A stretch of 64,000 bases of DNA from a virus (taxonomy: Duplodnaviria; Caudoviricetes), in the IMG/VR virus record IMGVR_UViG_3300012973_001074, positions 1-64,000 of that record. One strand, given 5' to 3'. Positions 46,040-62,695 of the stretch are shown here, one piece after another. Positions within the stretch are counted from its first letter, which is position 1; the number at the start of each line of letters is the position of its first letter. The notes under the pieces were generated by a model that worked only from the letters and a program-made list of their open reading frames with translations, did no database searches and was not told the DNA's origin. The translations under genes were made by a program, and so were the position numbers.

Positions 46040-47044
46040 TCACGCCGCGAACACGAAGTCCAGGTACCGCATCGCGAGCGGCTGGTAGATCTTTACTCCG
46101 CCGCAGCGAGCGTGGCAGTTGTGGAGGAATTCGAAGACCTTCTGCTCGGGCGGCATGACCTCGAACTCCTGCGGAATGATCGCCTCGAGCACGTCGGGTG
46201 TCTTCCGGTACGAGATGGCGCGAGGCACGCCTCCGACGCCCGCCTTGTTGAGGCGGTGCCATGGTGCGATTGTCGTGATGTTCGGGTTGTTGCGGCGGAA
46301 GATCGTGAGGATCGACTCGCCCGTGAGCGCCGAGAACGGCGTCTGCTGGATGTAGCTGAAGTACCGGGTCGGCAGGAGGAGGGTGTCCGCCGCCCACTGA
46401 TTGTCGGAGTAGTTGCCGACTTCGGCCGCGAGGCGCGCGAGGTCAGCGAGGATGATGTCGGGGTCGAGCGGCGTCGTCGGCGGAGCGCCGGCGGCGGTGA
46501 GCCAGGCGCCTCCGCCCATGACGCCGAGCGCGGCGACGAAGGGGTTGTTCACGAGGCCGTTGAGGCCGACGTCCGGGAGCACGCCGTTCTCGTCGGCGAG
46601 CGAGCCGAACGCGAGGACCTCGTCGATGCCGCGCTCGATGAAGTCCGCGGCCGCGCGAGCTTTCGAGTCCGACAGCTGTACGCCGAGGCGCGCCGCTTCG
46701 CGTAGTTCGTTGATGTCCCAGCCGTAGGCGGCGCCGATCGGCGTCACCTTGCCGAGCACCTCCTCGGCCGCGACGTCGACGCGCGGGATGTCGTCGCTCT
46801 TGTACGTGATGAGCTTCGCCCGGCCGACGGGCTTCATGACCTTGTAGCTGTAGGTCGAAGCGCTCGCGGCGATGTCCGTCGCCTTCGGGGCAAACGTGCG
46901 CGCGAGCGTCGGCAGGAACGCGACTTCGTACATCTTCGCGCGCAGCTGCGTGAGCTCGCGCTCGAGGAACATCGTCTCGTTCGCGTCGAAGTGCTGCACG
47001 AGCGCTGCGCGCTGCAGACGCTTGTACTGGATCTCGTCGAGCAT
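46040..47044 (-). CDS. Major capsid protein (DUF2184-like)
   Basis: FLERELTQL...DIPRVD...GWDINEL...GLVNNP...ARCGGVKIYQPLA. Confidence 0.92.
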   Translation of the reverse strand: MLDEIQYKRLQRAALVQHFDANETMFLERELTQLRAKMYEVAFLPTLARTFAPKATDIAASASTYSYKVMKPVGRAKLITYKSDDIPRVDVAAEEVLGKVTPIGAAYGWDINELREAARLGVQLSDSKARAAADFIERGIDEVLAFGSLADENGVLPDVGLNGLVNNPFVAALGVMGGGAWLTAAGAPPTTPLDPDIILADLARLAAEVGNYSDNQWAADTLLLPTRYFSYIQQTPFSALTGESILTIFRRNNPNITTIAPWHRLNKAGVGGVPRAISYRKTPDVLEAIIPQEFEVMPPEQKVFEFLHNCHARCGGVKIYQPLAMRYLDFVFAA

Positions 47045-47229: not shown

Positions 47230-47718
47230 TTACGCGCCGTTGGGGCGGCCCGGGTAGTTGAGCTGCAGAACCGCGACGCCCGCGGCGCCGACGCCGCGAT
47301 AGACGCTGACGCCCGAGGGCTGCACCGCGCTTGCGTCGTCAGCGTCGTTGCGCCATCCGCCCTTCGTGCCCTCTCCTGCGAAGCGGACGAACGGAGTCGC
47401 CTGCGCGGCGATCGCCTGCTCCGTTGCGACCCAGACGCGGCCCTGCAGCATGACGGGCACGACGTCGCCCTGCTTGTGGCCCAGGCCGCTCGGACGCGTC
47501 GGGGTAGCGAGGGCGACGCCGCCCTCGCCATCGGTGACCTCCGCAGCGTCGTCGGCGAGCTCGCAGTAGCCGCCGCTCACGCGGACGTATGCACCGAAGG
47601 GAATGTCCTCCTGCGCGACGCAAGAGACCACGTCCTTCGGGCCCGTGTCGTAGATCAAGCCCGGGTAGCCGGCGCTCGGCTCCGCGGTGATCGCTGTCTG
47701 AACCACGTCGGCCATCAC
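47230..47718 (-). CDS. Head decoration/cement protein
   Basis: AGYPG...IPFG...VPVMLQGRVWV; between protease and capsid. Confidence 0.8.
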   Translation of the reverse strand: MMADVVQTAITAEPSAGYPGLIYDTGPKDVVSCVAQEDIPFGAYVRVSGGYCELADDAAEVTDGEGGVALATPTRPSGLGHKQGDVVPVMLQGRVWVATEQAIAAQATPFVRFAGEGTKGGWRNDADDASAVQPSGVSVYRGVGAAGVAVLQLNYPGRPNGA

Positions 47719-49841
47719 TTACCTCCGTTCATCTGCTGCTGGCCGGTTTGCCAGAGCGACGCCGCCTTCTGGTCGCGATTGCGGCGCGCTCGGCTGACCG
47801 GATCGTTGTCGTTGGGGGTGTCGAACGAGTCGAGGTTGTGCACCTCGCGGACGACTGCGCGACGAACGCCGTTGATGCCGTTCGCGTCGCGGACCTGCTC
47901 GATCATCGCGTCGTAGCGGCTGCGGACGTAATCGTCCGACTTGCCCTTGTCGTCGAAGTCGGGGTTCTTCTTCCGGATCGCGTAGAGCATGACCTCGCGA
48001 TCGCTCTTCGAGTCGAGCTTCTCGAAGGGGTTCTTCTTCTTCGTGACGGTCTTCTTCTTCTTCTTGCCGTCTTCGTCGACCTCTTCCTCCTCGACGACCT
48101 CCTCCTCCTCGTCTTCGTCGGCGGAGCCGAACCAGCGGGCGACCTCGGTGAGGAGGCGGACGCGCGAGCGGACCTCGGACTGCGTGCGCTTCTTGAGCTC
48201 GTCGGCGTCCTTGTCCTTCGCCTTCTGGGCGTCGGCCTTGAACTCGTCGAGCGACTGCTTCGCCGCATCGCGAGCGCCCTCGGCCTCGTCGGCGCGCTTC
48301 TTCTCGGCGCTGAGATCTGCAGAGAGCTTGTCGATCTTCGCCTTCGCGTCGTTGCGGACCTGATCGACCTCGCGCCGGTGCATGTCGTCGAGCTTGTCGA
48401 GATGCGCCTGCGAACCGACCTCGTACTCCCTGCCGTCGATGCGGATGACCTTCATCGTTTGCTCCTGTTCTTCGTCGTGGGACACGCCCCAAGGGGGCCC
48501 CTGGTTATCGAGGCGCAGTCCCACTTCGGGTCCGGCCCGACCTCGGTTCGGCGGACAGAGCGCCGCGTGGTTGTAACGGATGTCTCTCTGGATGCAGTCG
48601 AAGCGCTCACCCTCGTAGGTGCCGCTCGTCATCTCGAGGCGGCAGCGGTAGCCGCAGGAGATCTCGGAGCGATCGCCGGTCTCGATCGCGTCGAGCGTTT
48701 CGGCGTCCTGCACGATGAGGTCGCTCGCGATGAACTTGCCGTCCTGGCGGACGCGCGCGACGTGCCCGAGAGAGACCCTGCGCCACGTCTCCGGTGTGAC
48801 CAGGCCCGTGTGGTCTTTGATGTCGATGACGGGCGCGTGCTCGAGCGTCGCGAGCGAGTCGGCCTTGAAGACCTCTTCGGGGAGCCGGAGTTCGCGACGC
48901 TGTGTGCCGTCAGGGTTCACGTACGTGAGCACGCCGGTGCGCGTGAGGCGCGCCGGGACGCGTGCGCCGCCGACCTGCGTGCGATCGACCTTGCCGAGAC
49001 GTGAGCGATCGAGGCGGAGGACGAGCTCGCCGGAGTCGAAGCGACGCTGCTCGTCGGCGTCAGAGGTCCACCGGCCGTCTTCCTCACGGGGGACGTTCAG
49101 GTGGCCTTCGCCGCTTCCGCCAGAGCCGCCGGCGCCATTGCTCCTGGCCGCGGCGGTGTTTTCGTCGGCATCGGCACGCTGCTCGAGGGCAAGCCGCCGC
49201 TTGCGAGTCTGGTGCATTGCGAGCTCCCTTGCTGCTTCCGAGACGCGCCTGCGCATCTCCTCGTCCGTGGGCGACGCCGCTTCGTCAGCGGCGTCGAGGT
49301 CGTCCTCGTCGTCCTCGTCGTCCTCGTCGGGCTGCGCTTCTGGGTTCAGGAACGGCGTGCCCGCGTTCTCATCGAGCCCGATCGGAACGAAGGAGACCTC
49401 GACGAGGCGAGCAGCGGGCGAGGCTGCGCGCGTCGTCGCGGCGGGGTTGTCGACCTCGGCCTCGTCGTCCTCGGGCTCGTCCTCGTCCTCGGCGCTGTCG
49501 GCCGAGCCTTCTGGTCCGCCGTCGTAGCCGATCGATACGGAGCGGATGACGCCGTCCTTCACGCCCTGCCAGACCTGCTCGGCGAGCGGGTTGACGGCCT
49601 CGCGCGCGAACGTGACACGCATGCGCAGGCCTTCGGCGGAGGCCTCCACGTCGTTCGCGAGACCGATCGGGAGCTCGGCGGCGTCGTGTGCCCAGAGGAT
49701 GACTGGGTTCTTGAGGAAGCGCTCGAGCTCCCATTCGGTGATCTGCACGCCGTCGACGGGCTCGGGCGACGACGCGATGATCCATACCGAGCGCGTGTAC
49801 TCGTCGACCTTCGCGACGCGCGCGAGGAGGTTCTTGGGCAT
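47715..49841 (-). CDS. Prohead protease/scaffold with HK97-like protease domain, DUF2213 domain and coiled-coil scaffold
   Basis: KNPVILWAHD...PIG...RSVSIGY...LVEVSFVPI; then TRTGVLTY...RLPEEVF...EISCGY...QRDIRYNHAA....GRAG. Confidence 0.85.
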   Translation of the reverse strand: MPKNLLARVAKVDEYTRSVWIIASSPEPVDGVQITEWELERFLKNPVILWAHDAAELPIGLANDVEASAEGLRMRVTFAREAVNPLAEQVWQGVKDGVIRSVSIGYDGGPEGSADSAEDEDEPEDDEAEVDNPAATTRAASPAARLVEVSFVPIGLDENAGTPFLNPEAQPDEDDEDDEDDLDAADEAASPTDEEMRRRVSEAARELAMHQTRKRRLALEQRADADENTAAARSNGAGGSGGSGEGHLNVPREEDGRWTSDADEQRRFDSGELVLRLDRSRLGKVDRTQVGGARVPARLTRTGVLTYVNPDGTQRRELRLPEEVFKADSLATLEHAPVIDIKDHTGLVTPETWRRVSLGHVARVRQDGKFIASDLIVQDAETLDAIETGDRSEISCGYRCRLEMTSGTYEGERFDCIQRDIRYNHAALCPPNRGRAGPEVGLRLDNQGPPWGVSHDEEQEQTMKVIRIDGREYEVGSQAHLDKLDDMHRREVDQVRNDAKAKIDKLSADLSAEKKRADEAEGARDAAKQSLDEFKADAQKAKDKDADELKKRTQSEVRSRVRLLTEVARWFGSADEDEEEEVVEEEEVDEDGKKKKKTVTKKKNPFEKLDSKSDREVMLYAIRKKNPDFDDKGKSDDYVRSRYDAMIEQVRDANGINGVRRAVVREVHNLDSFDTPNDNDPVSRARRNRDQKAASLWQTGQQQMNGGK

Positions 49842-49855
49842 GCCTGACCTCGGAG

Positions 49856-51133
49856 TTAGGTGGCGGGCGGAACAAGCGGGCCGTTGGCGTAGAGGCGCAG
49901 GCTCGCGGTGACGGAGGACGCCGTCGCAGCAAGGAAGCCGCCGCCACCTGCGAAGACGTTCGCGGCCGCGCCGAGCCGGTGGCCGCCGTAGCGCCACGTT
50001 GCTCCCGCGTCGGGCGAAAAGACGATGTCTCCGAAGGCGCCCGCGGCTGCGCAGTAGAGCGCTCCGACCGTTCCGAGCGATCCGATCTCCACGCCGACTG
50101 CCCCGACTTCGGCGAAGCTCTCCCCCTGAGTGCTCGAACGGAGGACGCGAGAGACGCCGTTGCGCGACCACGCGCAGACGAACATGTCGAGCAGCTCGTC
50201 GTAGCGGAGCGAGAGCCCAGGCGGCGAGCCGCCTCCAATGAGGTGCTCGCCGCGCGGGGTCCAGGTCATCCCACCATCGTCGGAGGTCGCCCACCGGAGT
50301 GCGCCGGCGTTCGTGTTGGCGTGGAGCCAGACGAGGCGCCCCGATGCCGGATTGAGAGCGAGGAGGTTATCGGTGGAAGGCCCGCCGAACTCGGCTGGCG
50401 TAGTACGGGCGGTCCAGGCCGCAGCGTCAGGGCTCGTGAAGACCTTGGGCCCCGTCCCGCTGCCGTGAACCACGACCCATAGTGCGTGCACCGAGTCGTA
50501 ACGGACGGAGGGGCGATCCGCCACCACGCCCCCCGGCAGGACGGGTGCCGACCAGAGGTTGGTTGGGCTCCGCACATCGAGCGTGGCGGAGCCGTTGTTG
50601 GCGATAGCCACGAGCCCCGTCGGGGTGACGTCGATGTCGTGGCTGACGCGACCGCCAGCCGGAAGCGCGAGATCGGTCCACGCGCGCCCGAACGTTGCCG
50701 ACGAGCGTCCGGTGTTTGTCGCGCCGACGCCGAACCATGTGGAGAGCTCGGGCACGTACCGCAGGCGCCGATTGATCCCGTTGACCGTCACGGGCGCTCC
50801 GAAGTTGAGCGCTGGGAGGCTCCCCCAGGTGTGCATCCACTCCGCGCGCCGTGCGGCGAGCAAGGTCGTCATCTCGACCCTGTAGGCCGCGAGCTCGTCT
50901 TCGTCGTGGTTCTGGTCCTCGATGAGCGCGGAGAGGAGCGCGGCGAACTGACGGTCGAGCCAGTTGCGGTACTGGCCTCCGAACTGCCGCCCGGGACGCA
51001 TGCCTTGGCGAAGCTCGGCGAGCGACGGCTGGATCTTGACCGGGCTGTCGTCGACGTCGTCGCCGGCGGCCGCGAAGTTTATGTCCGTCGCGATCTCGAG
51101 CGCCTGCGACGAGTAGATTGGCTTGTCGCTCAT
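49856..51133 (-). CDS. Fibre-like protein with BNR/Asp-box beta-propeller, located in the head module
   Basis: N-terminal GMRPG...QYRNWL; repeated S.D.G.TW motifs. Confidence 0.65.
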   Translation of the reverse strand: MSDKPIYSSQALEIATDINFAAAGDDVDDSPVKIQPSLAELRQGMRPGRQFGGQYRNWLDRQFAALLSALIEDQNHDEDELAAYRVEMTTLLAARRAEWMHTWGSLPALNFGAPVTVNGINRRLRYVPELSTWFGVGATNTGRSSATFGRAWTDLALPAGGRVSHDIDVTPTGLVAIANNGSATLDVRSPTNLWSAPVLPGGVVADRPSVRYDSVHALWVVVHGSGTGPKVFTSPDAAAWTARTTPAEFGGPSTDNLLALNPASGRLVWLHANTNAGALRWATSDDGGMTWTPRGEHLIGGGSPPGLSLRYDELLDMFVCAWSRNGVSRVLRSSTQGESFAEVGAVGVEIGSLGTVGALYCAAAGAFGDIVFSPDAGATWRYGGHRLGAAANVFAGGGGFLAATASSVTASLRLYANGPLVPPAT

Positions 51134-51614: not shown

Positions 51615-52238
51615 ATGAGAATTGTCACTCTCGTCGGATTCGTCGCTCTGGTCGGTGCGTGCTCCAGGGGGAACGCCATTGGTCCCGATGACCGGCACCC
51701 GGACGGGCAGCAGAACCAGGACCCTTCGAAGGACGATCCCTCCGACCCTTCGAAGCCGACCCCGTCAGACCCTTCGAAAGCCGGGACGAGCGGTTCGCGG
51801 TTGAAGGCGCGCTACTACGAGGGCGAGGACGGCTCGAAGCAGTTCATCGGCTGGTGGGACTCGCAGCGGCAGGAAGACTGTGTGATGGTGCCAGCCAAGG
51901 ATGGGAAGCTGCGCTGCCTACCGGCGGCAAATGTCGCCATCACTGGCTACGCAGACGCGAACTGCAGCGTGCCTGTCGTGACGGTCCGCAAGGGCTGCGC
52001 TGCGCCGTCGGCGGCAATCGTTATGGAAACGTCAGGGAACGTATCCTGCAGCCTGGGATACGCGTACGCCGCGTACGGTGTAGACCCTGCGAAGTTCACC
52101 GGGACGTTGTACGGAGGCTCGCCTTCGACCTGTAAGGTCACAACGGGCGAACCGTACGCCGAAACCATGGATTTTCACCGACTCAGCTCGGAAATTCCTC
52201 CGACCTCGTTCGTAGCGGTGAACCAGACGCACGACTAG
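51615..52238 (+). CDS. Myxobacterial-type Cys-rich lipoprotein (moron)
   Basis: Lipobox LVGAC, DPSK repeats, SGSRLKARY...WDSQR.EDC...DGKLRCLP...YADANCS. Confidence 0.75.
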   Translation: MRIVTLVGFVALVGACSRGNAIGPDDRHPDGQQNQDPSKDDPSDPSKPTPSDPSKAGTSGSRLKARYYEGEDGSKQFIGWWDSQRQEDCVMVPAKDGKLRCLPAANVAITGYADANCSVPVVTVRKGCAAPSAAIVMETSGNVSCSLGYAYAAYGVDPAKFTGTLYGGSPSTCKVTTGEPYAETMDFHRLSSEIPPTSFVAVNQTHD

Positions 52239-53137
52239 TTGAGGCCGACTTCTTCGAGCTCGGGGAGGACGGGGTAGGCGATGCATCGGCAGTTGATGGG
52301 CTCGCCCGGGTGGCCCTCTTCGGGGTGACCGTCGGCCCACGTGAAGCGCGCGCCTTCGAGGTCCTTGTGCTCGGGCCGCACGCGCTCGTCGTTGCTCGTC
52401 GTCCAGATGTACTCATCGATGCCCGCAGCGGTTTGGCGCTCGCGGGTGATGTTCGCGTTGAGCGTGAGGATCTGGTCCCGCGCGAGCGCCTCGGCGCGCG
52501 ACAGCGTGACATCGTCGAGCTGGCGCGCGATCTCCTTGGCGAGCGTCTGCGCCGTGTGGCCTCGGCCCTCGCGAAGGATCCTCTCGATCTTCGCGAGCTG
52601 GTCCTTCTGCATGCCCGTGATGCGGGCGACGTTGTCCTTCCGCCAGCCGTCGATGAGCCACTTGAGGTGGGGCTCCTTCTCGACGTTGATCCCGAGGCGG
52701 GAGAACTCGCGCTGCGAGTGCTGCACGACGCGCTTGGCTGCGCGGTTCGATGTTCGTGAGAAGCCGGGTTCGTTGAAGGCATCGAAGCCTGCGAACTCCA
52801 GGTCCTCGAGAAGCTCGTCGAGCTCCGAGTCCTCGAGCAGCTCCAGGTCGAGATCCTCGAGCTCGTCACCCGGTGCATCGAGCCGCTCGGCAGCGTCGGT
52901 CTTCGTGACGCGGCGCTCAGCGGCGGCGGCGAGTTTTGGAAAGACGACCTTCCCGACGGCTCGTGCGAAGGCGGCCGCGATGCGGCGAAGCTCCAGCACC
53001 ATCATCAGCTCGGCCCCGCGCGGCAGTTGAGGTGAGCGGGTGCGGCGGACGGCGTTGCTGGGAGGGCGTTGGGTCCTCTTCGGGAGCCTCGGTCGGCGAG
53101 GCCTTCGCGGCGGATGGCGCAGTGCTGCGCGAGCCAT
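52235..53137 (-). CDS. Minor head protein MuF/SPP1 gp7, short form
   Basis: RAEALARDQ...YIWTTSNDERVRPEH...HPGEPINCRC. Confidence 0.92.
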   Translation of the reverse strand: MARAALRHPPRRPRRPRLPKRTQRPPSNAVRRTRSPQLPRGAELMMVLELRRIAAAFARAVGKVVFPKLAAAAERRVTKTDAAERLDAPGDELEDLDLELLEDSELDELLEDLEFAGFDAFNEPGFSRTSNRAAKRVVQHSQREFSRLGINVEKEPHLKWLIDGWRKDNVARITGMQKDQLAKIERILREGRGHTAQTLAKEIARQLDDVTLSRAEALARDQILTLNANITRERQTAAGIDEYIWTTSNDERVRPEHKDLEGARFTWADGHPEEGHPGEPINCRCIAYPVLPELEEVGLN

Positions 53138-53765: not shown

Positions 53766-54299
53766 ATGACGAGCAAGACGAAGACGAAGACGAGGCCGAA
53801 GACGAAGACGAAGGCGAAGGCGAAGGCGAAGGACCCGTTCGACGACTTCCCGGCGCGCCTCAAGGCGGCGCGAGAGCGGTGCGGGTATGGAGTGAACGAG
53901 CTAGACCGGCTCGTGGGCGTCTCCGTCGGGCAGACCTCGCGGCTCGAGCTCGGTGCGCGGCCGCGCGTGAGCATAGAGACCGTCGCGAAGTTCGCGCGCG
54001 TTCTCGATGTCACCATCGACTGGCTGTGGAACGGACCGGTCCCTTCGGGAGGAGTGAAGGTCCTGCAGCGGGGGGCTCGGAGGGAGCCGCGTTACGTGCC
54101 CTCGACCCTGCGGCGAGCCATCGGGAGGCCTCTTGAGGAAGTCGCCGAGAAGGCGGGTATCGGACTGACCAATGTGGCGCGCGTCGAGGCCGGGGAGAAC
54201 GCGACCCTCGCGGACCTCGCGGGCTTCGCCAAGGGTATCGACATGAAGCTTGAAGTCGCCTTCGTCGCAGGCGAGCGGCGCTACCGCATCGACGTGTGA
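53766..54299 (+). CDS. Double-HTH XRE-family regulator
   Basis: Two HTH_3-like units (RLKAARERCG...SRLELG; LEEVAEKAGIG...ARVEAG); N-terminal (KT/KA)n repeat. Confidence 0.8.
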   Translation: MTSKTKTKTRPKTKTKAKAKAKDPFDDFPARLKAARERCGYGVNELDRLVGVSVGQTSRLELGARPRVSIETVAKFARVLDVTIDWLWNGPVPSGGVKVLQRGARREPRYVPSTLRRAIGRPLEEVAEKAGIGLTNVARVEAGENATLADLAGFAKGIDMKLEVAFVAGERRYRIDV

Positions 54300-54516
54300 G
54301 CCGGCTCTTGCGCGACCGCGATGGCGTTCGTAGGTTGCGACGCCTCGGAGCCCACACGCAAACTGTCCTCGGTAGGCGAGGGCTGCTTTAGGGAAGCAGA
54401 TGCGCCGGTGCGACTCCGGCCTCGCGCTCCGAGCACTCGGTCCCGCTGGCAGACGCTGGCGGGGCCGTCGCGTGTCGGGGTTGAGTCCGCCTGGAATTCG
54501 CGATGGACTTGCGGCA

Positions 54517-55167
54517 ATGGAGTCCGCCGTCATCACTGCTCTCGCTGCGATCGGCGGCGTGGTCCTTGGTGCATACCTGACACGGAAGAACGCCTTGGCC
54601 GTCGCCGAACTGTCGGCGAAGACGGCACGGGAGCAGGAGCTTGAGCGCGAACGGAGAGCGCTCGCCCGCGACCGGCTGGAGCGGCAGTTCGAAGCAAGGC
54701 TCGCCGTGCAGCGATTCGTTCTGAACAACTTGAACGGCCCTGGTTGGTCGGACCCGGGCGTCCGAGAGGAGGCAGCTCAGATTGCGGGACGGGTAGCATC
54801 CGCCTTCACTGCGCCACGCTTCGCAGCGTTCCTCTACGAGGTGCTCTTCTACGAAGTCGCGCTCCCGATCCGTCCTGGAATGTTCCAGAAGGCGCCACGA
54901 ACGATGACGGAGAGCCAGCTCTTGGCGCTCTGGAACCGAAGCGACAAGGAGATGTTGCGCGTCATCGAAGAGACGGTGCGCGTGTCCGGCTATGGCGAGC
55001 TGGAGATCCCGAAGGTTCCTTCGAAAGATGAGGCAGTCAAGGAAGCGCCGCGGACGCGAATCGCGTCCCTGTCCGCGGCGTCCGCGAGCGAGCCAACTGC
55101 AGCAGACCCGGAGGCTTCGGAGGAGGCGGCAGCGCTATCGGACTCGCGGCGCGCTCGGGGCGGCTGA
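54517..55167 (+). CDS. Membrane-anchored hypothetical protein
   Basis: N-terminal TM (AVITALAAIGGVVLGAYL) plus coiled coil. Confidence 0.7.
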   Translation: MESAVITALAAIGGVVLGAYLTRKNALAVAELSAKTAREQELERERRALARDRLERQFEARLAVQRFVLNNLNGPGWSDPGVREEAAQIAGRVASAFTAPRFAAFLYEVLFYEVALPIRPGMFQKAPRTMTESQLLALWNRSDKEMLRVIEETVRVSGYGELEIPKVPSKDEAVKEAPRTRIASLSAASASEPTAADPEASEEAAALSDSRRARGG

Positions 55168-55306: not shown

Positions 55307-55498
55307 ATGAATGCGAAGTCCCCGAAGACGGTAGAGGCACCGAAGCCAGGCAAGTCGAGCCTGGACATGTTCAACGAGGCCTACGCGAAAGCGATGGCCG
55401 AGGAAGCCGAGGAGACCGAGAACCTCCCGAAGGCCTTCACGCCGGAGGAGAGCCTGGTCGAGGTCGTGGACGACGACGACAAGCACTTCGGCGTCTAG
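55307..55498 (+). CDS. Small acidic protein convergent with the zeta-kinase gene
   Basis: AGGAGG RBS; 63 aa; stop overlaps the stop of 55495..57447. Confidence 0.65.
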   Translation: MNAKSPKTVEAPKPGKSSLDMFNEAYAKAMAEEAEETENLPKAFTPEESLVEVVDDDDKHFGV

Positions 55499-57447
55499 CC
55501 GCCGCGTTTCCTCTGCAGCTTGACCTTGTGGCCGTTGGCCGCGTCGTAGACCGTGAGGTTCGGCGCGGCCGCGTGAATTTTGTCGCGGGCCTTTTCGATC
55601 TTCGCGTACGTGCCGCGGATGACGTGCTCGGGCACGTAGCGCCCTGAGCCCTCGGCGCGCGAGGCGGCGCGCCGGACGCCCTCGTCCGGGTTCAGGTCAG
55701 GGTGGTGCACGTGGACGTCGTAGCCCTTCGCTTCGAGGTGGTTCATCAGCGCGATGAACTTGTCGGCGTTGCCGCCCGTGCCGTCGATGATCACGTGGTG
55801 CCCGCGGTCGACGGCGCGGTCCCGGATCTGCTTGGCGACGGCGCTCGACTCCTCGTGCACCTGCGCGGCCGCGCCTCGGAACGTCGGGCCGGCGCTCGGG
55901 TCCTTCGGAACGCTCGCCTTGTACTCGGGGAGCTGGGACTTCACTTCGTCCGGATCGACGTGGACGAAGCGCGACGTGTCGAGACCGTGTTTCGCGAGCT
56001 TGCCGAGCACGACGCCTTTGCCGCTCGCCGGTCCGCCCATCGTGAGGATCGCGATGGGCTTCTCGCCGAGCTCGCCGGCGGTCTTCTTGCCATCGAAGGC
56101 GGGCGCGATGAGCTCGCGTTCGTGAAAGGCGGCGCGCTCGGGCGAGGGCTTGCCGCCTTCGTCCGGGTGCTTGTCGTAGTGGTCCTTCCAGGTCTCGTTG
56201 CTCTTGCCCATCAGCTGGCCGGACCACGAGCCGTCGGGGTTCTCGGTGCCGACCCAGGTGCGACCGGGCTTGAGCGGTTCGTCCTTCGCCGGGGCGGGCT
56301 GCTTCTGCGCGCTCGGCGGGACCTTGTCGTGCGTGCTCGAGAAGTCCCCCGCGGGCCCGCCGCTGCCGCCTCTACCACCGACCTTGTGCAGGCCCGGGCC
56401 GGGCGGTCCCTCGCGGTCGCTGCCGCCGCTGCCGGAGCCGATGCTCGTCCAGCGTCCCTCCTCGTCGCGCGGAACGCCTTCCCACTCGTCCGCGTCCGTG
56501 CGCTCTTCACCCGCTTCGAGACCGAATTGCGCGGCGAGCTGCCTCCACGCCCATTCGAGCTGCTTGTCGGTGAGCTTCGGGTTCTCGCGCTTCGCCTCGG
56601 CGAGCCACTGACCCTTGTACTTGCGTGGGTTCGCTGCGAGCTCGTCGAGGAACTCGTCGCGCGCACGCTTTTCCGTGTCGCTCACGCCCGGCTTCGCATC
56701 GGTGCGCGTCTTTTCGAGGCGCATCGTGACGTAGTCGGGGTGATCGAACCGGTCGTAGTCCCAGTCGGTCGCCGCGTACTCAGAGTTGAACGCATCGCGC
56801 GTCGCCTCCTTGAAGCCGACCTTCTCGTAGAGCTTGTTGAGGGTCGGCCCGTAGCACTCGACGTAGTTGACGCCGTAGTTGTCGACGACGTGACGAAGGA
56901 GCTCGACGCCGATGCCCTTCTGGCCACCCTGGTTGAAGAGCGCTGTCGCCTCGATGCGCCCGTCACCGTGGTCTTTGACCGCGACGCCGGCCTTGCCGTC
57001 GGGGCTCATGACGCAGCTCATCTTCCCCAGGTCTTCGACCCCATAGTGCGAGACGTGATGCTTGAACGGGGAGTCCTTGAACGCAGAGTCGAAGGCCGCC
57101 TTGAACTTGTCGGCCTTCTCGCGCACGGGCGAGACCGCGGCGCGCGCGCCCTCGGCGCTCTTCCAGTCGCCCGAGCTCGAGCCGCCGCCCTTGCCGCCGG
57201 GACGGTGCACACCGATGCCCGCGTCGGTCCCCGCTGAGGTGTCGCCGCCGCTGCTCGTCCAGAGGCCCTTCTCGTCGCGCGGGACCTCCTCCCAGCCTTC
57301 GGCGTCCGTGCGTTTCTGCTGCTTGTCGCGAGAGCCGGTGAGCCCTTCCTGCTCCTTCCTGGCCGCCGCGCCGGGCTCGGGCTCGTCGCCGTCGAAGACG
57401 AAGCCGCCGAGCTCGGACGAGATGAACCGGTCCGCGCGCGTCGTCAT
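55495..57447 (-). CDS. Polyvalent protein: GNAT-like acetyltransferase, small helical domain, zeta-toxin-like P-loop kinase
   Basis: KGIGVELL...LNKLYEKVGF (GNAT); GGPASGKG, VDPDEVK, VHEESS, IIDGTG, RA...GRYVP (zeta). Confidence 0.85.
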   Translation of the reverse strand: MTTRADRFISSELGGFVFDGDEPEPGAAARKEQEGLTGSRDKQQKRTDAEGWEEVPRDEKGLWTSSGGDTSAGTDAGIGVHRPGGKGGGSSSGDWKSAEGARAAVSPVREKADKFKAAFDSAFKDSPFKHHVSHYGVEDLGKMSCVMSPDGKAGVAVKDHGDGRIEATALFNQGGQKGIGVELLRHVVDNYGVNYVECYGPTLNKLYEKVGFKEATRDAFNSEYAATDWDYDRFDHPDYVTMRLEKTRTDAKPGVSDTEKRARDEFLDELAANPRKYKGQWLAEAKRENPKLTDKQLEWAWRQLAAQFGLEAGEERTDADEWEGVPRDEEGRWTSIGSGSGGSDREGPPGPGLHKVGGRGGSGGPAGDFSSTHDKVPPSAQKQPAPAKDEPLKPGRTWVGTENPDGSWSGQLMGKSNETWKDHYDKHPDEGGKPSPERAAFHERELIAPAFDGKKTAGELGEKPIAILTMGGPASGKGVVLGKLAKHGLDTSRFVHVDPDEVKSQLPEYKASVPKDPSAGPTFRGAAAQVHEESSAVAKQIRDRAVDRGHHVIIDGTGGNADKFIALMNHLEAKGYDVHVHHPDLNPDEGVRRAASRAEGSGRYVPEHVIRGTYAKIEKARDKIHAAAPNLTVYDAANGHKVKLQRKRGG

Positions 57448-60365
57448 TGGACCTCCTCGGCATCGATGAGAAGACGCGGCGGGCGACCGATCTCGAGGTC
57501 GACCTGCGCGTAGCTTTCGCGCTTCACCGACCTGATCCGGAACCGTGTTCCCTTCGGGAGGAGGACCTCGGCTTCGTTCTGGTACTCGGACGCGCCGGAG
57601 ACCGTGACGCCGCTCTTGTGCTGCACGCGAATCACGGCATCGAATCCGTGGGGCAGGACCGCTGCGGTGGCGCCGCGATCGAGGTCCTCCTTTTCGAGGC
57701 TCGCGAACTGGGTCGCGACGTCTCGGTGATCGGAGAAGCTCGTCATCGAGTCGAGCGTGAACGTCTGCGAGTTGAGCATCTTCTCGACGACGCGCGGCGG
57801 GACCTGCTTGAGACCGCGGTAGACGGTCCCTGGCGTTGGGGGCACGTCGCGGAAGATGCCGTTCAGGTGCTCGATCGCCTGCTGCGCGCGCTCGGTGTGG
57901 TCCGCCGCGGACGAGGCCCCGTGCAGGAACTGCTTAGCGAGCTCCTCGGGCGTGCGGACGTGCTGGTCGCCATAGCGATCGGGCTGGGAGCGATACAGCG
58001 TCCCGGCTTCGTTCAGCGTGTAGCCGGACTCGGCGATCCGCTGGTCGAGATGCGCCTGCGTCGCGCGCGTGACCTCTTCGGGATCCGCTCCCGATTCGAG
58101 CTTGCGGATCGAAGTGTCGTAGCCCTTCGTGTACTGCGAGAGCGCATCGTAGTGCTCATCGCGGAGCTTGCTCGCGACGGCCTCCGCAGCGTCGAGGTGA
58201 GCGCGCTCGTTGAACGTGTTGCGCGTGTCTTCCTCGGTTGCGGCCTGCGAGCGGATGACGCGCGCGAGGGCCGCTCTCTCGCTCGCTCGCTCTGCAATCG
58301 GAGGCGGCTCGCCATTCTTGAAGAGGTGCTCTTCGTCGAAGTCTGCGAGCGCCTTCGCCTGCTCGCGCGACAGGCCGCGTGACTCGAGGCGATCGATTCG
58401 CTCGGCGACGTCGCCTGATACGCCCTCGCTCTCGACGATGCTGCTGATGCGCGCGCTCTTGTCGCCAGACCGAGGCTCAGAGCTCGAGTCACCGTCCTTC
58501 GGCGTGAACCGGCCCCCATCGGGCTCGCCAGCCGGCACGCGTTCGACGTTCGCCTCGTCCCAGTCGTCGGTGCGGACCGCGTCGTCGAGGAAGCGGATCT
58601 CGGTCTTGCCGCCGTGTCCGTGGATCTCGCGGACCTCGTCGAGCGAGTCGAAGAGCGTCGTCGAGCGGTGCTTCGTGAGCCAGCGCATGGCGACGGTGCC
58701 GTCCTCGAAGACGGCTCCGTGAGCGACGACGCCGGTACCGGAGACGCCGGTCTCGTCCTCGATGCGGTAGAGCTCGAAGAGGCGCGGACCGCTCGTCGCG
58801 TCCGTGCGCACGCGCGCGCGCTCGTAGTCGTCTTGGGTCGGCTTCGGCTTCTGCGCGACGCCGGGCGGAAGCTGCGGGGGACCTCCCTGCTGGGGGCCTC
58901 CCTGCTGCGGGGGACCTCCCTGCGGGGGCGGACCTCCCATGCCCGGAGGGGCGCCCGGTCCGCCCATCTCCGTCGGGTCGGGCGGGTTCTCCATTTGCTC
59001 GAGGTCGGCCTCGAGCACGGCCTGGCGCGCCTTGATGGCGTCGTCGGAGAGCCGGACCTCGTCCTCGAAGCCGCCGGCGATGCCGAAGCGCGCGATGGCG
59101 ACCTCCTCGGGCAGCAGGACCTGGGCCTGGATGTACGTCGAGTCCCGCTGCGCGATCGCGCTCTGGCGCTGCGCCTGCACGAGCGGTGTCTCGGTCCAGA
59201 GCGGGGTGAACTTGACCGTGAGCGACTTTGGCCGCGTGCGCGTCGGCGACGCCTTCGACTGCAGCCAGATGACGAGCAGGCGCCGGATCTTCGGCGCGAG
59301 CATCGTCGTCTGCTCGGCGCGGATGCGGTCGTAGAACCAGCGGAAGTCGCTCTCGCCCGTGGCGTTCATGCCGGCGGGCGACTGGCCCATCAGGATGGTG
59401 ACGGGGATCTGCACCGCCGCGGCGAGGCGGAGCATGAACTTTTCGAGCGTCGCGGGGATCTCGCTGAACGAGACGGAGTGCCGCGTGAACTCCTCCTTCG
59501 CGTCAGCATCGACGACGATGGCGCGCATCACCGAGCGGTAGAGCTCGATGATCTGCAGGCGCGCCTGGAGCTTCGCCTGCTCGTTGGCGCCGATCATCTC
59601 GGCGAGACCGGTCATCTTGAAGATGGCCTGGTTGCCGTCGGTGAGCAGCGTCTCGACGGCCGCCCATCCGGTGTTGAACGAGCGCAGCACGTTGTACGCG
59701 CGCTGCAGGACGGACATGTCCCAGCCGAAGAGCTGCTGCCGCTCGCGGATGCCCGTCGATGCTCCGCGGAAGAGGATGAGCCGCGACTCGTGGACAAGCA
59801 TCGTCGGCGACGACTTGGCCCCGGCCGCGGTGACGGCGTACGTCTTGGGCGTGCCGAACTTCGGGCCCGGTTCCTCGTAGAAGTCGACGGGCCAGAGAAG
59901 TCGGCGATCGAGCGGGTAGAGCCACTCTACGTCGTTCGCGCGCGCGGGCTTGAGCGGCTTCCAGGCCTCCTGGCCGTCGTCGGCACCGATGAGGACGGCG
60001 CCGCCGCCGTAGCAGCGGCCCCACTTGGACCCTTCTTGGAAGTTGCCGCGGACGTCGAGCGCGTCGAACTTCTCCTGGATGACCTCGTCGAGCTTCGGGT
60101 CGCCGGTCTCGATCGAGAACGGCTCGCGAAGCATCTCCTGCGGGACGACGTCGACCATGCGCGCCGCCATGTCGTCTGCGTGATAGAGCGCGGAGAGCTC
60201 GACATCCTCGAGCATCCGGTTCGGTAGGACGTAGCCGTAGGTCGTCTTGTCGCGCGCGGTGCCGAAGCCGGTGACCTCGTTGATCCACGCGTCGAAGCGC
60301 GACGTAGCGCGTGCGCGGAAGGCGCCGAGCGCCTCGCGCATCTTGATCGACGCGGAGTTCAGCAT
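57444..60365 (-). CDS. Portal protein (DUF1073-like) fused to a small domain and a C-terminal ADP-ribosyltransferase
   Basis: Portal: AARMVD...WGRCYGGG...VHESRLI...IPVTILMGQSPAGMNATGESD; ART: VYRG, TSFS, QNEAEVLLPKGTRFRI. Confidence 0.9.
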   Translation of the reverse strand: MLNSASIKMREALGAFRARATSRFDAWINEVTGFGTARDKTTYGYVLPNRMLEDVELSALYHADDMAARMVDVVPQEMLREPFSIETGDPKLDEVIQEKFDALDVRGNFQEGSKWGRCYGGGAVLIGADDGQEAWKPLKPARANDVEWLYPLDRRLLWPVDFYEEPGPKFGTPKTYAVTAAGAKSSPTMLVHESRLILFRGASTGIRERQQLFGWDMSVLQRAYNVLRSFNTGWAAVETLLTDGNQAIFKMTGLAEMIGANEQAKLQARLQIIELYRSVMRAIVVDADAKEEFTRHSVSFSEIPATLEKFMLRLAAAVQIPVTILMGQSPAGMNATGESDFRWFYDRIRAEQTTMLAPKIRRLLVIWLQSKASPTRTRPKSLTVKFTPLWTETPLVQAQRQSAIAQRDSTYIQAQVLLPEEVAIARFGIAGGFEDEVRLSDDAIKARQAVLEADLEQMENPPDPTEMGGPGAPPGMGGPPPQGGPPQQGGPQQGGPPQLPPGVAQKPKPTQDDYERARVRTDATSGPRLFELYRIEDETGVSGTGVVAHGAVFEDGTVAMRWLTKHRSTTLFDSLDEVREIHGHGGKTEIRFLDDAVRTDDWDEANVERVPAGEPDGGRFTPKDGDSSSEPRSGDKSARISSIVESEGVSGDVAERIDRLESRGLSREQAKALADFDEEHLFKNGEPPPIAERASERAALARVIRSQAATEEDTRNTFNERAHLDAAEAVASKLRDEHYDALSQYTKGYDTSIRKLESGADPEEVTRATQAHLDQRIAESGYTLNEAGTLYRSQPDRYGDQHVRTPEELAKQFLHGASSAADHTERAQQAIEHLNGIFRDVPPTPGTVYRGLKQVPPRVVEKMLNSQTFTLDSMTSFSDHRDVATQFASLEKEDLDRGATAAVLPHGFDAVIRVQHKSGVTVSGASEYQNEAEVLLPKGTRFRIRSVKRESYAQVDLEIGRPPRLLIDAEEVQ

Positions 60366-60442: not shown

Positions 60443-60754
60443 CTATTTCGGCGCGTTCAGCGGGCGGCGGCGCATCCGCTCGATGCGTCGCCGCGTCTGT
60501 TCGAGTCCCCGCGAGATAGCCCTCCGCCGATCGTCAGGGCTGAGAACGCGAAAGGAGGCAGCACCGGTCGGCGGAGGAGTCTCAGAGATGCGCCGCGTCG
60601 GCGGTGGCTCGTCGTCGTCGCGGCAGCCGACGAGAGCGCGGAAGCCTGGGGTGCACGGGTCGCGCGCGTCGCACGAGAGCGCGAAGCCTGCGCCGCTTTC
60701 CGGCCCGCACGTGCAGTCCTCGCCCATGTCGCAAGTGAGCGCGTGGACCTTCAC
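60443..60754 (-). CDS. hypothetical protein
   Basis: GTGA overlap with the terminase stop. Confidence 0.45.
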   Translation of the reverse strand: MKVHALTCDMGEDCTCGPESGAGFALSCDARDPCTPGFRALVGCRDDDEPPPTRRISETPPPTGAASFRVLSPDDRRRAISRGLEQTRRRIERMRRRPLNAPK

Positions 60755-62139
60755 GTGCCGGTCCTCTTGCCCAGCGCTTCGACCATCGGGTTGACCGTCG
60801 AGCAGGCATGCAGCGCCAGGGCGAGGGCCCAGGCTCGGTCGCCGTGCCCTTCGCTCGTGCGCGGCGTCTCGTACTTGACGTTGCCTGCGCTCGTAATGAC
60901 GCGCTTGATCGACGCGAGCTCCTTGCGGAGAAGCTCGGCGGTCTTCGGCTCGGCGAACGGAAGGACCTTGTCCTCGGCGGGGAGCCGGACGTTCTTCGCC
61001 GCGGTCGCCGCGTACAGGCCCGTCGCGAGCTCCTCTTTCATGTTCGGAGTGAAGTCGACGAGCTCGACGCGCGGGCGACGGTGCGGGACGTCGATCCTCT
61101 CCGAGTGCTTCCTCTTGATGCGTTCGGCCGGGAAGTAGCCGAGGCCCGTAGAGTCGATGCAGAGGCGCTTGAGGTGGTACTTCTCGAAGGCGCGCGAGAC
61201 CATGGCCTCGAGCCCCTCGGAGTCGGTCCGCTTCATCGTCTCGACGTGGACGACGTAGCGGACGCCTCTCACGAGACGGACGACGAGCAGGACGGACAGG
61301 TCGACCTCGCGGCCGATGTCGAGGCCTGCGTAGTAGTCGCCGTACGCGAGGCCCGGAACGTCGTAGCTGACGCTGCAGGCCTTGATCTGGTCGGTCGGGA
61401 TGTACTGCAGCTCGTTGTCGAGGAACGAGCAGCGGAACATCTGCGCGAACAGGCGCGGGTCGCCCTTCGCCAGCTTCCAGCACTTGCGGAGATCGACTGG
61501 GTAGCCCTGCGAGATCGCGAGCTCGATCGGAATCGAGTGCGGGGCCCATCCGCTGTTCGGCTCGAGGGCCTTTTCCCAGAGGACATGGAAGTCGTTCCCG
61601 ATGCCGTTCGGCGTCGAGACGACCCGCATCTTGTAGCCGAGGAGCGTGACGGGCGCGGCCGCGTCCCAGACCTTGGCGGCGTGCTCCTGGTAGGCGAACT
61701 CGTCGAGGAAGACGTTGCCGGTGAAGCCGCGGCCACCGGAGGAGGGGAGCGCGAGGATCCTTCCGCCGCTCGCGAAGGTCAGCTCGTTCGAGTTGTCCTT
61801 GCGCCCGAAGCGCGCCATCTCGGAGCCCAGGGCCTGCAGCACCTGCGCGTGCTTGCGCGCCTTGTCGAGGACCTCGACGGCCTCGCGGTCGCCGACGGAG
61901 ATGACCGTGGTGAGCTCGCCGTGGAAGGCGCCCCAGAGAACGCCGACGGCGCTCGTCGTGTGCGAGGTGCCGATCTGGCGAGACTTGTTCGCGATCGCCG
62001 CGTCGTTCTGCTCGAACAGCCAGTCGCGCTGGAACGGGTAGAAGCTGCCGGCCCAGGCGGCGAGCGCCGAGAACTCACTCTCGGGGAGCGCTTGCTGGTA
62101 CTTCGCCAGCGCCTGCGCCGCTTGACTCGGAAGCCTCAT
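60751..62139 (-). CDS. terL: Terminase large subunit (Mu gp28-like)
   Basis: NKSRQIGTS Walker A, VFLDEFA Walker B, STPNG, GLDIG, IDSTGLG, HGDRAWALAL. Confidence 0.95.
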   Translation of the reverse strand: MRLPSQAAQALAKYQQALPESEFSALAAWAGSFYPFQRDWLFEQNDAAIANKSRQIGTSHTTSAVGVLWGAFHGELTTVISVGDREAVEVLDKARKHAQVLQALGSEMARFGRKDNSNELTFASGGRILALPSSGGRGFTGNVFLDEFAYQEHAAKVWDAAAPVTLLGYKMRVVSTPNGIGNDFHVLWEKALEPNSGWAPHSIPIELAISQGYPVDLRKCWKLAKGDPRLFAQMFRCSFLDNELQYIPTDQIKACSVSYDVPGLAYGDYYAGLDIGREVDLSVLLVVRLVRGVRYVVHVETMKRTDSEGLEAMVSRAFEKYHLKRLCIDSTGLGYFPAERIKRKHSERIDVPHRRPRVELVDFTPNMKEELATGLYAATAAKNVRLPAEDKVLPFAEPKTAELLRKELASIKRVITSAGNVKYETPRTSEGHGDRAWALALALHACSTVNPMVEALGKRTGT

Positions 62140-62695
62140 CCGGTGGTCCCTGCTGCTCGGGCGGCGGCGGCGGCGGTTGCTCGAGCCACGCGGGATCGAT
62201 GGGCGCCGGCGGGACCGTGACCTCGCCGACGGCGGGGCCTCGCGCGCCGTGCTCGCCGAAGAGCTCCCGCACGAGGCGGGCGGCCTCGACGACCGTGGGC
62301 GCGTCGCCCATGAGCGGGCCGCCGTTTGCGCCGGTGAGCTGCTGCTGTTTCGGCGCGTCGAGCCCGAGGTACGCGGAGATCCGCGTCTGGATGGCGAGCA
62401 TCCGGTCGATGGCGGCGAGCTCGCCACGCTGAGCGCGCTGGTAGAGACCGCCGCGCAGGACCGCTTCGAGCCTCGCGACCTCGATCCAGCGCTGCTCGTC
62501 GACCGTCTCGTTCGCCTCCTGCCGGAGTCGCTCGACTGCCTTGCGGAACACCTTGAAGGGACCGGACGCGTTCGCGTAGCCGAGCTCCTTCGCGATCATC
62601 GACCACGTGAGCCCGGCGCGCCGGCGCTGGATGATCGACTCTTCGAGCTCGAGGTTCGCGACCTCGCCCGCGTCACGCTTCGACGTGTTGCCCAT
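62075..62695 (-). CDS. Putative terminase small subunit
   Basis: N-terminal HTH (GLTWSMIAKELGY), LGLDAP, LTGANGGP; directly upstream of terL. Confidence 0.75.
   Translation of the reverse strand: MGNTSKRDAGEVANLELEESIIQRRRAGLTWSMIAKELGYANASGPFKVFRKAVERLRQEANETVDEQRWIEVARLEAVLRGGLYQRAQRGELAAIDRMLAIQTRISAYLGLDAPKQQQLTGANGGPLMGDAPTVVEAARLVRELFGEHGARGPAVGEVTVPPAPIDPAWLEQPPPPPPEQQGPPDEASESSGAGAGEVPASAPRE

Follow-up and report, generated by a model that had tools for sequence, protein, structure and literature searches.

Predicted Acb5-type nuclease and ADP-ribosyltransferase modules on the C-terminus of a phage portal protein: candidate enzymatic cargo of the phage head

We analyzed a stretch of 64,000 nucleotides of viral DNA (Duplodnaviria, Caudoviricetes; hereafter the window), positions 1 to 64,000 of the IMG/VR record IMGVR_UViG_3300012973_001074, and concentrated on one gene of its head module, located at 57444..60365 on the minus strand and encoding 973 amino acids (aa) plus the stop codon. 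This single open reading frame (ORF) joins a portal, a linker, a predicted nuclease of the Acb5 family that would counteract the cyclic-oligonucleotide-based antiphage signaling system (CBASS), a junction motif and a predicted ADP-ribosyltransferase (ART). Related phages exchange enzymes at one conserved joint of this kind. We favor, with slightly better than even confidence, a reading in which such modules are counter-defence and takeover enzymes that would be loaded into the capsid, released by a protease and injected. It builds on the domain identities, the intact catalytic residues, the swapping of modules and the placement of the joint motif; packaging, cleavage, ejection and the target of the ART are what we infer. 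The original prediction, made from the letters alone and given without a strand, had described a single 973-aa ORF with a complete portal in its N-terminal part and an R-S-ExE ART carrying YRG, TSFS and NEAEV at its end. All of these elements were recovered. The ART is indeed part of the payload, but it is not the whole of it: the Acb5 domain between portal and ART had been overlooked, as had the junction motif and an adjacent second cargo gene. The position of Acb5 between portal and ART makes the payload at least bivalent, and its first module would serve counter-defence and is not a toxin.

The portal core was delimited with Pfam and PHROG profiles to aa 1-470 (58956..60365, minus strand). 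The Pfam family Phage_portal_3 (PF06381) matches aa 56-409 over profile positions 2-356 of 357, with 242 bits against a cut-off of 33.8 (E 8.5e-72; 245.5 bits for the same portal in a genome-wide profile search), and the PHROG portal profile phrog_146 matches aa 20-446 with an E value of 1.8e-93. The closest solved relatives are the dodecameric portals of Pam3 (8HDS) and E217 (8FVH). In solved portals the C-terminus points to the capsid interior. By analogy, the protein would form a dodecameric ring with its C-terminus inside the capsid, and therefore up to 12 copies of each enzyme would be built into the prohead. A second portal was not found in the provirus with PF06381, PF04860, PF05133 and PF06074, although the PF06074 control matched nothing anywhere. 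The core is followed by a low-complexity linker rich in Pro, Gly and Gln, recognized from the sequence (aa 471-518; 58812..58955, minus strand), and by a first RTDA site immediately before Acb5 (aa 520-523; 58797..58808, minus strand).

Aa 528-595 (58581..58784, minus strand) correspond to an intact Acb5-type domain, predicted to be an anti-CBASS nuclease that cleaves 3'3'-cyclic GMP-AMP (cGAMP). Acb5 proteins are homotetrameric phage enzymes with pockets between protomers, which cancel CBASS by cutting 3'3'-cGAMP to 2'3'-cyclic mononucleotides; Acb5A depends on R10, W38 and H61, and no structural homology links the family to Acb1 or to other immune-evasion phosphodiesterases (bioRxiv 10.1101/2025.07.12.664507). 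The same study, in which Acb5 worked when simply co-expressed in cells, left out proteins longer than 200 aa and does not mention head-protein fusions. A match to PF26761, the family named Acb5, is precomputed for the 973-aa protein in the protein database, and the embedded domain shares 53% identity with the tested Acb5A (E 1e-24). R534, W562 and H584, which correspond to R10, W38 and H61, do not vary across 67 aligned sequences (the embedded domain and 66 free homologues), and the termini of the free Acb5 proteins coincide exactly with the borders of the embedded domain. The model of the domain as a monomer has a predicted local distance difference test score (pLDDT) of 83.8; Foldseek retrieved no fold for it from the PDB at E <= 0.001. 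In cultured phages Acb5 was found only as a free small gene, mostly in Streptomyces phages, and neither the portal-Acb5-ART fusion nor similar DNA is present in the cultured phages searched. The closest free Acb5 proteins come from Nonomuraea and Streptomyces; together with the 68% GC of the DNA, this makes an actinobacterial host our guess.

Elsewhere Acb5 is attached to another type of head protein. A 291-aa protein (L011:5660-6535), encoded directly after a Mu-type portal, consists of a Mu-like head protease N-domain (PF10123) and Acb5, and this PF10123-Acb5 fusion was found on 12 contigs.

Behind the junction, a Ser/Gly/Asp-rich and then helical spacer (aa 621-725; 58191..58505, minus strand) leads to the last module, aa 726-973 (57447..58190, minus strand), which we predict, from sequence and modeled fold, to be an arginine-type R-S-ExE mono-ADP-ribosyltransferase with R850, S876, E931 and E933 as its key residues. 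The Pfam family ADPrib_exo_Tox barely passes its cut-off here (24.6 bits against 23.4), while PHROG profiles of Alt-like ARTs match the module with E values of about 1e-6. When the PDB was searched with phmmer the best match was the Vis toxin (E 4.6e-5), with YRG, TS[F/T]S and ExE all aligned, followed by Tre1. Y849-R850-G851 (aa 849-851) falls on the YRG of Vis, T875-S876-F877-S878 (aa 875-878) on its TSTS, and E931-A-E933, within NEAEV at aa 930-934, on the EAE of both Vis and Tre1. In C2/C3/VIP2-type mono-ARTs, ExE in the ADP-ribosylating turn-turn loop goes with an arginine target. An exhaustive search led to 139 ART homologues, six of them close; across 57 aligned homologues S876 and E933 are invariant, and R850 and E931 are conserved in at least 90%. 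Structure prediction of the C-terminal domain likewise yielded an ART fold: the AlphaFold2 model (pLDDT 88.1, predicted TM-score 0.84) matched Vis (1e-10), Certhrax, C2-I, CDTa, iota Ia, Tre1, HopU1 and C3 with a Foldseek probability of 1.00.

The joint that separates modules consists of RxD[A/G/D], a few residues, [P/E]RDxxGRF and a Gly-rich run. Between Acb5 and the ART it occupies aa 598-620 (58506..58574, minus strand) and reads RTDDW...ERVPAGEPDGGRF, a variant of RxD..[P/E]RDxxGRF; the form RTDDW..(H)PRVPAG.PDGG.F is common to the 973-aa portal and its nearest ART relatives. Five RTD[A/G/D] sites occur in 1153 aa of cargo, all at module borders, against a background of 0.27 RTD per 1000 aa. 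Similarly, in 24 of 32 portals the 22 aa ahead of Acb5 include an [RK]xD[AGSD] site, compared with 5.3% of control windows. The GRF part was found in 23 of 120 relatives, just ahead of payloads, and also, at a distance of 26-68 aa from the N-terminus, in six separately encoded cargo proteins of two related cargo arrays, L007 and L009.

Part of this signature recurs in the head protease. The S78 prohead protease of the window, fused to a DUF2213 domain in a 708-aa protein of the Pa193_gp24 type (47715..49841, minus strand), holds in its linker RADA, a junction-like VPREEDGRWTS and RFDS; the protein contains one GRW-type copy of the motif. An aligned [RK]xDA was present in the variable linker between protease and DUF2213 in all four phages compared, and this linker is where self-processing would be expected. 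Only the RxDA part of the joint is common with the protease linker. We also considered the GRF motif as a mark common to all head proteins and rejected it, as it is absent from the major capsid protein, from MuF and from the proteases of three relatives. A literature search yielded no description of the joint motif.

To see what other portals carry at this place, as the original prediction had proposed, we took the best 120 portal relatives of at least 535 aa and sorted them by what comes after the portal core. Swapped C-termini are indeed present. Acb5 was found in 41 of the 120, in 23 as the only addition and in 18 with further modules, namely Zeta kinase, RelA/SpoT, HNH and GNAT-fold modules; another 44 have an extension of more than 130 aa without Acb5, and in 35 the extension does not exceed 130 aa. 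The portal-Acb5 proteins represent 41 independent protein clusters from other samples. Precomputed Pfam matches on related portals include Zeta/AAA_33, RelA/SpoT, HNH and Nudix, and BLAST clustering of the portal tails separated more than 20 unrelated tail types.

The ART tail of the 973-aa portal is a singleton among the tails of these 120 relatives, of which one other (P0059) has a distant ART; four further portal-ART proteins are among the ART homologues. The carriers of 103 ART homologues include 32 MuF proteins, three Mu-type portals, one P23-45-type portal and two PT-HINT toxins. ART relatives ride on at least three portal families, and the novelty first claimed for the portal as a carrier was overstated. 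The same modules may also be encoded separately: in L007 (L007:77-9861) a 1076-aa portal is followed by four overlapping cargo genes of 552, 680, 685 and 266 aa, a layout that L009 repeats. The closest relatives of the ART, P0124 and P0125, are separate genes of the L007 array; two genes of this array carry paralogous ARTs, and each opens with xRDxHGRF. At the other extreme, a 2407-aa member of the same portal family (P0144) is a portal polyprotein in which three RDxxG[R/K]F joints are combined with an ART (aa ~1889-2041).

Read along the minus strand, the genes follow in the order large terminase, portal-Acb5-ART, a 650-aa gene, a reverse-strand island, MuF, S78 protease-DUF2213 and major capsid protein. 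The 650-aa gene (55495..57447, minus strand) is the second cargo gene, and its start overlaps the stop of the portal gene. Its product is built of a leader, a junction, a GNAT-fold module (aa ~110-246), RTDA, another junction and a Zeta-toxin-type kinase (aa 461-638; E 7e-27). The resemblance to GNAT acetyltransferases comes from an Atlas model (TM-score 0.70) and serves as a lead only. The GNAT-fold and Zeta modules are 49-59% identical to the C-termini of five related portals. Aa 4-34 of the 650-aa protein are 52% identical to the N-terminus (aa 6-36) of an L007 cargo gene, and this N-terminal stretch may be a leader common to both, ahead of the first joint.

The remaining genes are those of a head module. 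The large terminase (60751..62427, minus strand; start codon uncertain) lies directly upstream of the portal. Upstream of it, a 206-aa ORF (62075-62695, minus strand) matches phrog_645, which is labeled RNase E (E 1e-15); from its position it may encode the small terminase or a nuclease. MuF forms a protein of its own, 300 aa long (52235..53137, minus strand), which matches PF04233 only and carries no effector, in agreement with the short MuF described before. The major capsid protein (PF09950) is encoded at 46040..47044 on the minus strand. The protease had been listed as an 859-aa ORF (47715-50294, minus strand) opening at an upstream GTG; the ~150 aa at its beginning are rich in Arg and have a non-coding appearance, alignments with relatives begin at the Met at ~49841, and this Met, not the GTG at 50294, is the likely start. 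The island in the head module is on the plus strand and has a lower third-position GC (0.7-0.85); it comprises a 177-aa protein with two XRE-type helix-turn-helix domains (53766-54299; HTH_31, E 1e-15) and a 255-aa ORF without a family match (54400-55167, plus strand).

In the mechanism that we favor, the C-terminal extension of the portal would lie inside the prohead and would place its enzymes, up to 12 copies of each, at the vertex through which the DNA exits, and the next gene would add the GNAT-fold module and the Zeta-type kinase behind the same motif. The S78 head protease would then cut after the Asp of RxD[A/G/D], freeing the ART as well as Acb5, the latter as a fragment of ~75 aa, which is the size of stand-alone Acb5. 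The predicted products are the portal (aa 1-~522), Acb5 (aa ~523-600) and the ART (aa ~601-973). The freed proteins would exit with the DNA, and the incoming phage would bring ready-made anti-CBASS and host-modifying enzymes; as a speculation, the twelve tails could give three Acb5 tetramers. T4 gp21 and phiKZ gp175 cleave after an acidic residue, which resembles the proposed RxD cut. A virion ejection protein that inhibits CBASS is already known, and T4 Alt and packaged effector fusions offer precedents (PMC5512222, PMC9503650). A broader version, in which the joint is a general capsid-cargo signal of the clade, read by the S78 protease, and any module behind it, be it on the portal, the head protease or a separate cargo gene, is loaded, cut free and injected, is more tentative and in our opinion rather less likely than its opposite. 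If it were true, Acb5 would be the first cyclic-nucleotide-destroying anti-defence enzyme delivered pre-made, in the portals of dozens of lineages.

Several points weigh against injection from the capsid. A particle would contain only 12 copies, i.e. three Acb5 tetramers, and passage through the channel would require the 41-kDa ART to unfold. Late in infection is when CBASS tends to be triggered, so that the need for early delivery is not obvious. Acb5 stands alone, outside the head module, in every cultured phage found; the junction of the 973-aa portal matches the motif only in degenerate form (RVPAGEPDGGRF); none of the three relatives checked has the GRF part in its protease protein; and the steps of packaging, cleavage and ejection rest on inference.

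Some of these points would suit another explanation, in which the payload acts late in the producing cell and is not injected, the fusion to the portal setting only its timing and dose. Acb5 would then remove the cGAMP that CBASS produces on sensing late structural proteins, the ART would modify host or phage proteins late, and the modules would work either while still attached to unassembled portal or after being cleaved off in the cytoplasm. The effectiveness of Acb5 when co-expressed in cells, its occurrence in cultured phages as a free protein of the cytoplasm whose gene lies outside the head module, and the position of the portal-Acb5-ART gene in a late head operon all agree with this. 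We nevertheless consider late action unlikely. A portal is made in few copies and is finally buried in capsids, which makes it a poor vehicle for a cytoplasmic enzyme; Acb5 has been fused independently to a second prohead-internal protein, the Mu-type protease; the RxDA part of the joint recurs in the head protease's own linker; and the sister payloads Zeta, RelA/SpoT, HNH and ART are typical injected or toxin-type domains.

In a further alternative the portal would carry a polymorphic toxin in the manner of MuF toxins, where the ART and the Zeta kinase harm competitors or non-lysogens and immunity is encoded elsewhere in the prophage. Variable C-termini on a constant head-protein carrier are in line with this idea, as are the MuF fusions (32) and PT-HINT toxins (2) among the 103 ART relatives, the antibacterial toxin Tre1 as a structural relative, the classification of the record as a provirus, and the reverse-strand island with an XRE regulator in the head module. 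However, the ART is not followed by a small ORF of the immunity type; the gene that comes next overlaps and encodes the 650-aa cargo protein. Searches of the provirus for an ADP-ribosylhydrolase (PF03747) and a macrodomain (PF01661) found neither, and the constant first module is a predicted anti-defence enzyme and not a toxin. We therefore give this explanation little credence.

The integrity of the gene bears on the last alternative. The IMG/VR provirus from which the window comes is 115,531 bp long, with a CheckV completeness of 94%, and the 973-aa sequence is recorded in JGI/IMG, Logan, ENA and GEM, in every case on the same 149.7-kb contig. In each stretch of 100 codons of the frame, GC is 0.80-0.98 at third positions and 0.37-0.56 at second positions, so the coding signal is unbroken from the portal to the C-terminus, with no sign of a hidden frameshift or stop. 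One public read run contained 6% of the sampled words; its contigs are short and mostly less than 90% alike, and none extends across a domain border. A short portal made by programmed frameshifting in the linker was also considered and rejected: no alternative-frame stop lies within 95 codons, and a slippery run is absent. It is very improbable that misassembly or a sequencing error joined separate portal, Acb5 and ART genes, or that the extension is decaying, as might be suspected of a single metagenome-derived contig, given the uniform in-frame coding signal, the intact catalytic residues of both enzymes, and the occurrence of the portal-Acb5 architecture in 41 independent clusters and of portal-ART in at least five other proteins.

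Known anti-CBASS proteins are described as free and made after infection. If capsid loading and injection are the correct reading, some phages carry counter-defence in the particle, on portals (41 clusters) or on a Mu-type head protease, which sharpens the question of when signaling immunity is neutralized. The conserved joint would offer a candidate, open to testing, for a signal that directs the loading and cleavage of cargo outside T4, and it predicts exact fragment ends. The swappable payloads would also form a catalogue of candidate host-takeover enzymes in uncultured soil phages, with actinobacterial hosts by guess.

In identity to Acb5A (53%), in the retention of R10/W38/H61 and in its borders, which enclose a whole stand-alone Acb5, the embedded domain resembles the described Acb5 nucleases; unlike these free proteins of ~70-100 aa, it is embedded in a 973-aa portal. 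In the literature we came across no account of an Acb5 domain attached to a portal or head protease, and a review citing the Acb5 study does not mention portal or virion Acb5. Head-associated ARTs have been published before, and so have fusions of effectors to portals (Iyer et al. 2017, PMC5512222; Iyer et al. 2022, PMC9503650). In those portal and MuF fusions, too, effectors are attached to a head protein of the terminase-portal gene block, and packaging followed by injection was proposed for them. Here, however, Acb5, which received its family name only in 2025, is the first payload, and the modules meet at a specific conserved joint motif that does not appear in the searched passages of those papers. 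With at least two conflict effector domains per polypeptide among virion genes, Acb5 and ART on the portal and the GNAT-fold module and Zeta kinase in the next gene, the system has the composition of polyvalent proteins (Iyer et al. 2017). An MPTase autopeptidase was not noticed in it, though no search was aimed at MPTase. MuF polymorphic toxins (Jamet et al. 2017, PMC5576092; EFV MuF-ART) of temperate phages also combine a constant head carrier with a C-terminal toxin-type domain that varies and is often an ART. Our case differs in that no small immunity ORF lies downstream, an anti-defence enzyme precedes the ART and the carrier is the portal, the 973-aa protein having no MuF match and MuF being separate. 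The Vis toxin of Vibrio splendidus (4XZJ/4XZK/4Y1W) and the type VI secretion effector Tre1 of Serratia (6DRE) are the best sequence and fold matches of the ART, with the same R, S-x-S and ExE; identity is ~16-19% over the fold, and both are secreted or delivered by type VI secretion, whereas the ART described here belongs to a virion protein. T4 Alt is an ART that is packaged in the head and injected together with the DNA, a free protein with an N-terminal capsid targeting sequence and ~40 copies, and gp21 trims T4 cargo. The likeness lies in an ART as proposed head cargo and in trimming by the head protease after an acidic residue; the difference is that here the cargo is covalently part of the portal, with RxD[A/G/D]...RDxxGRF as the candidate signal.

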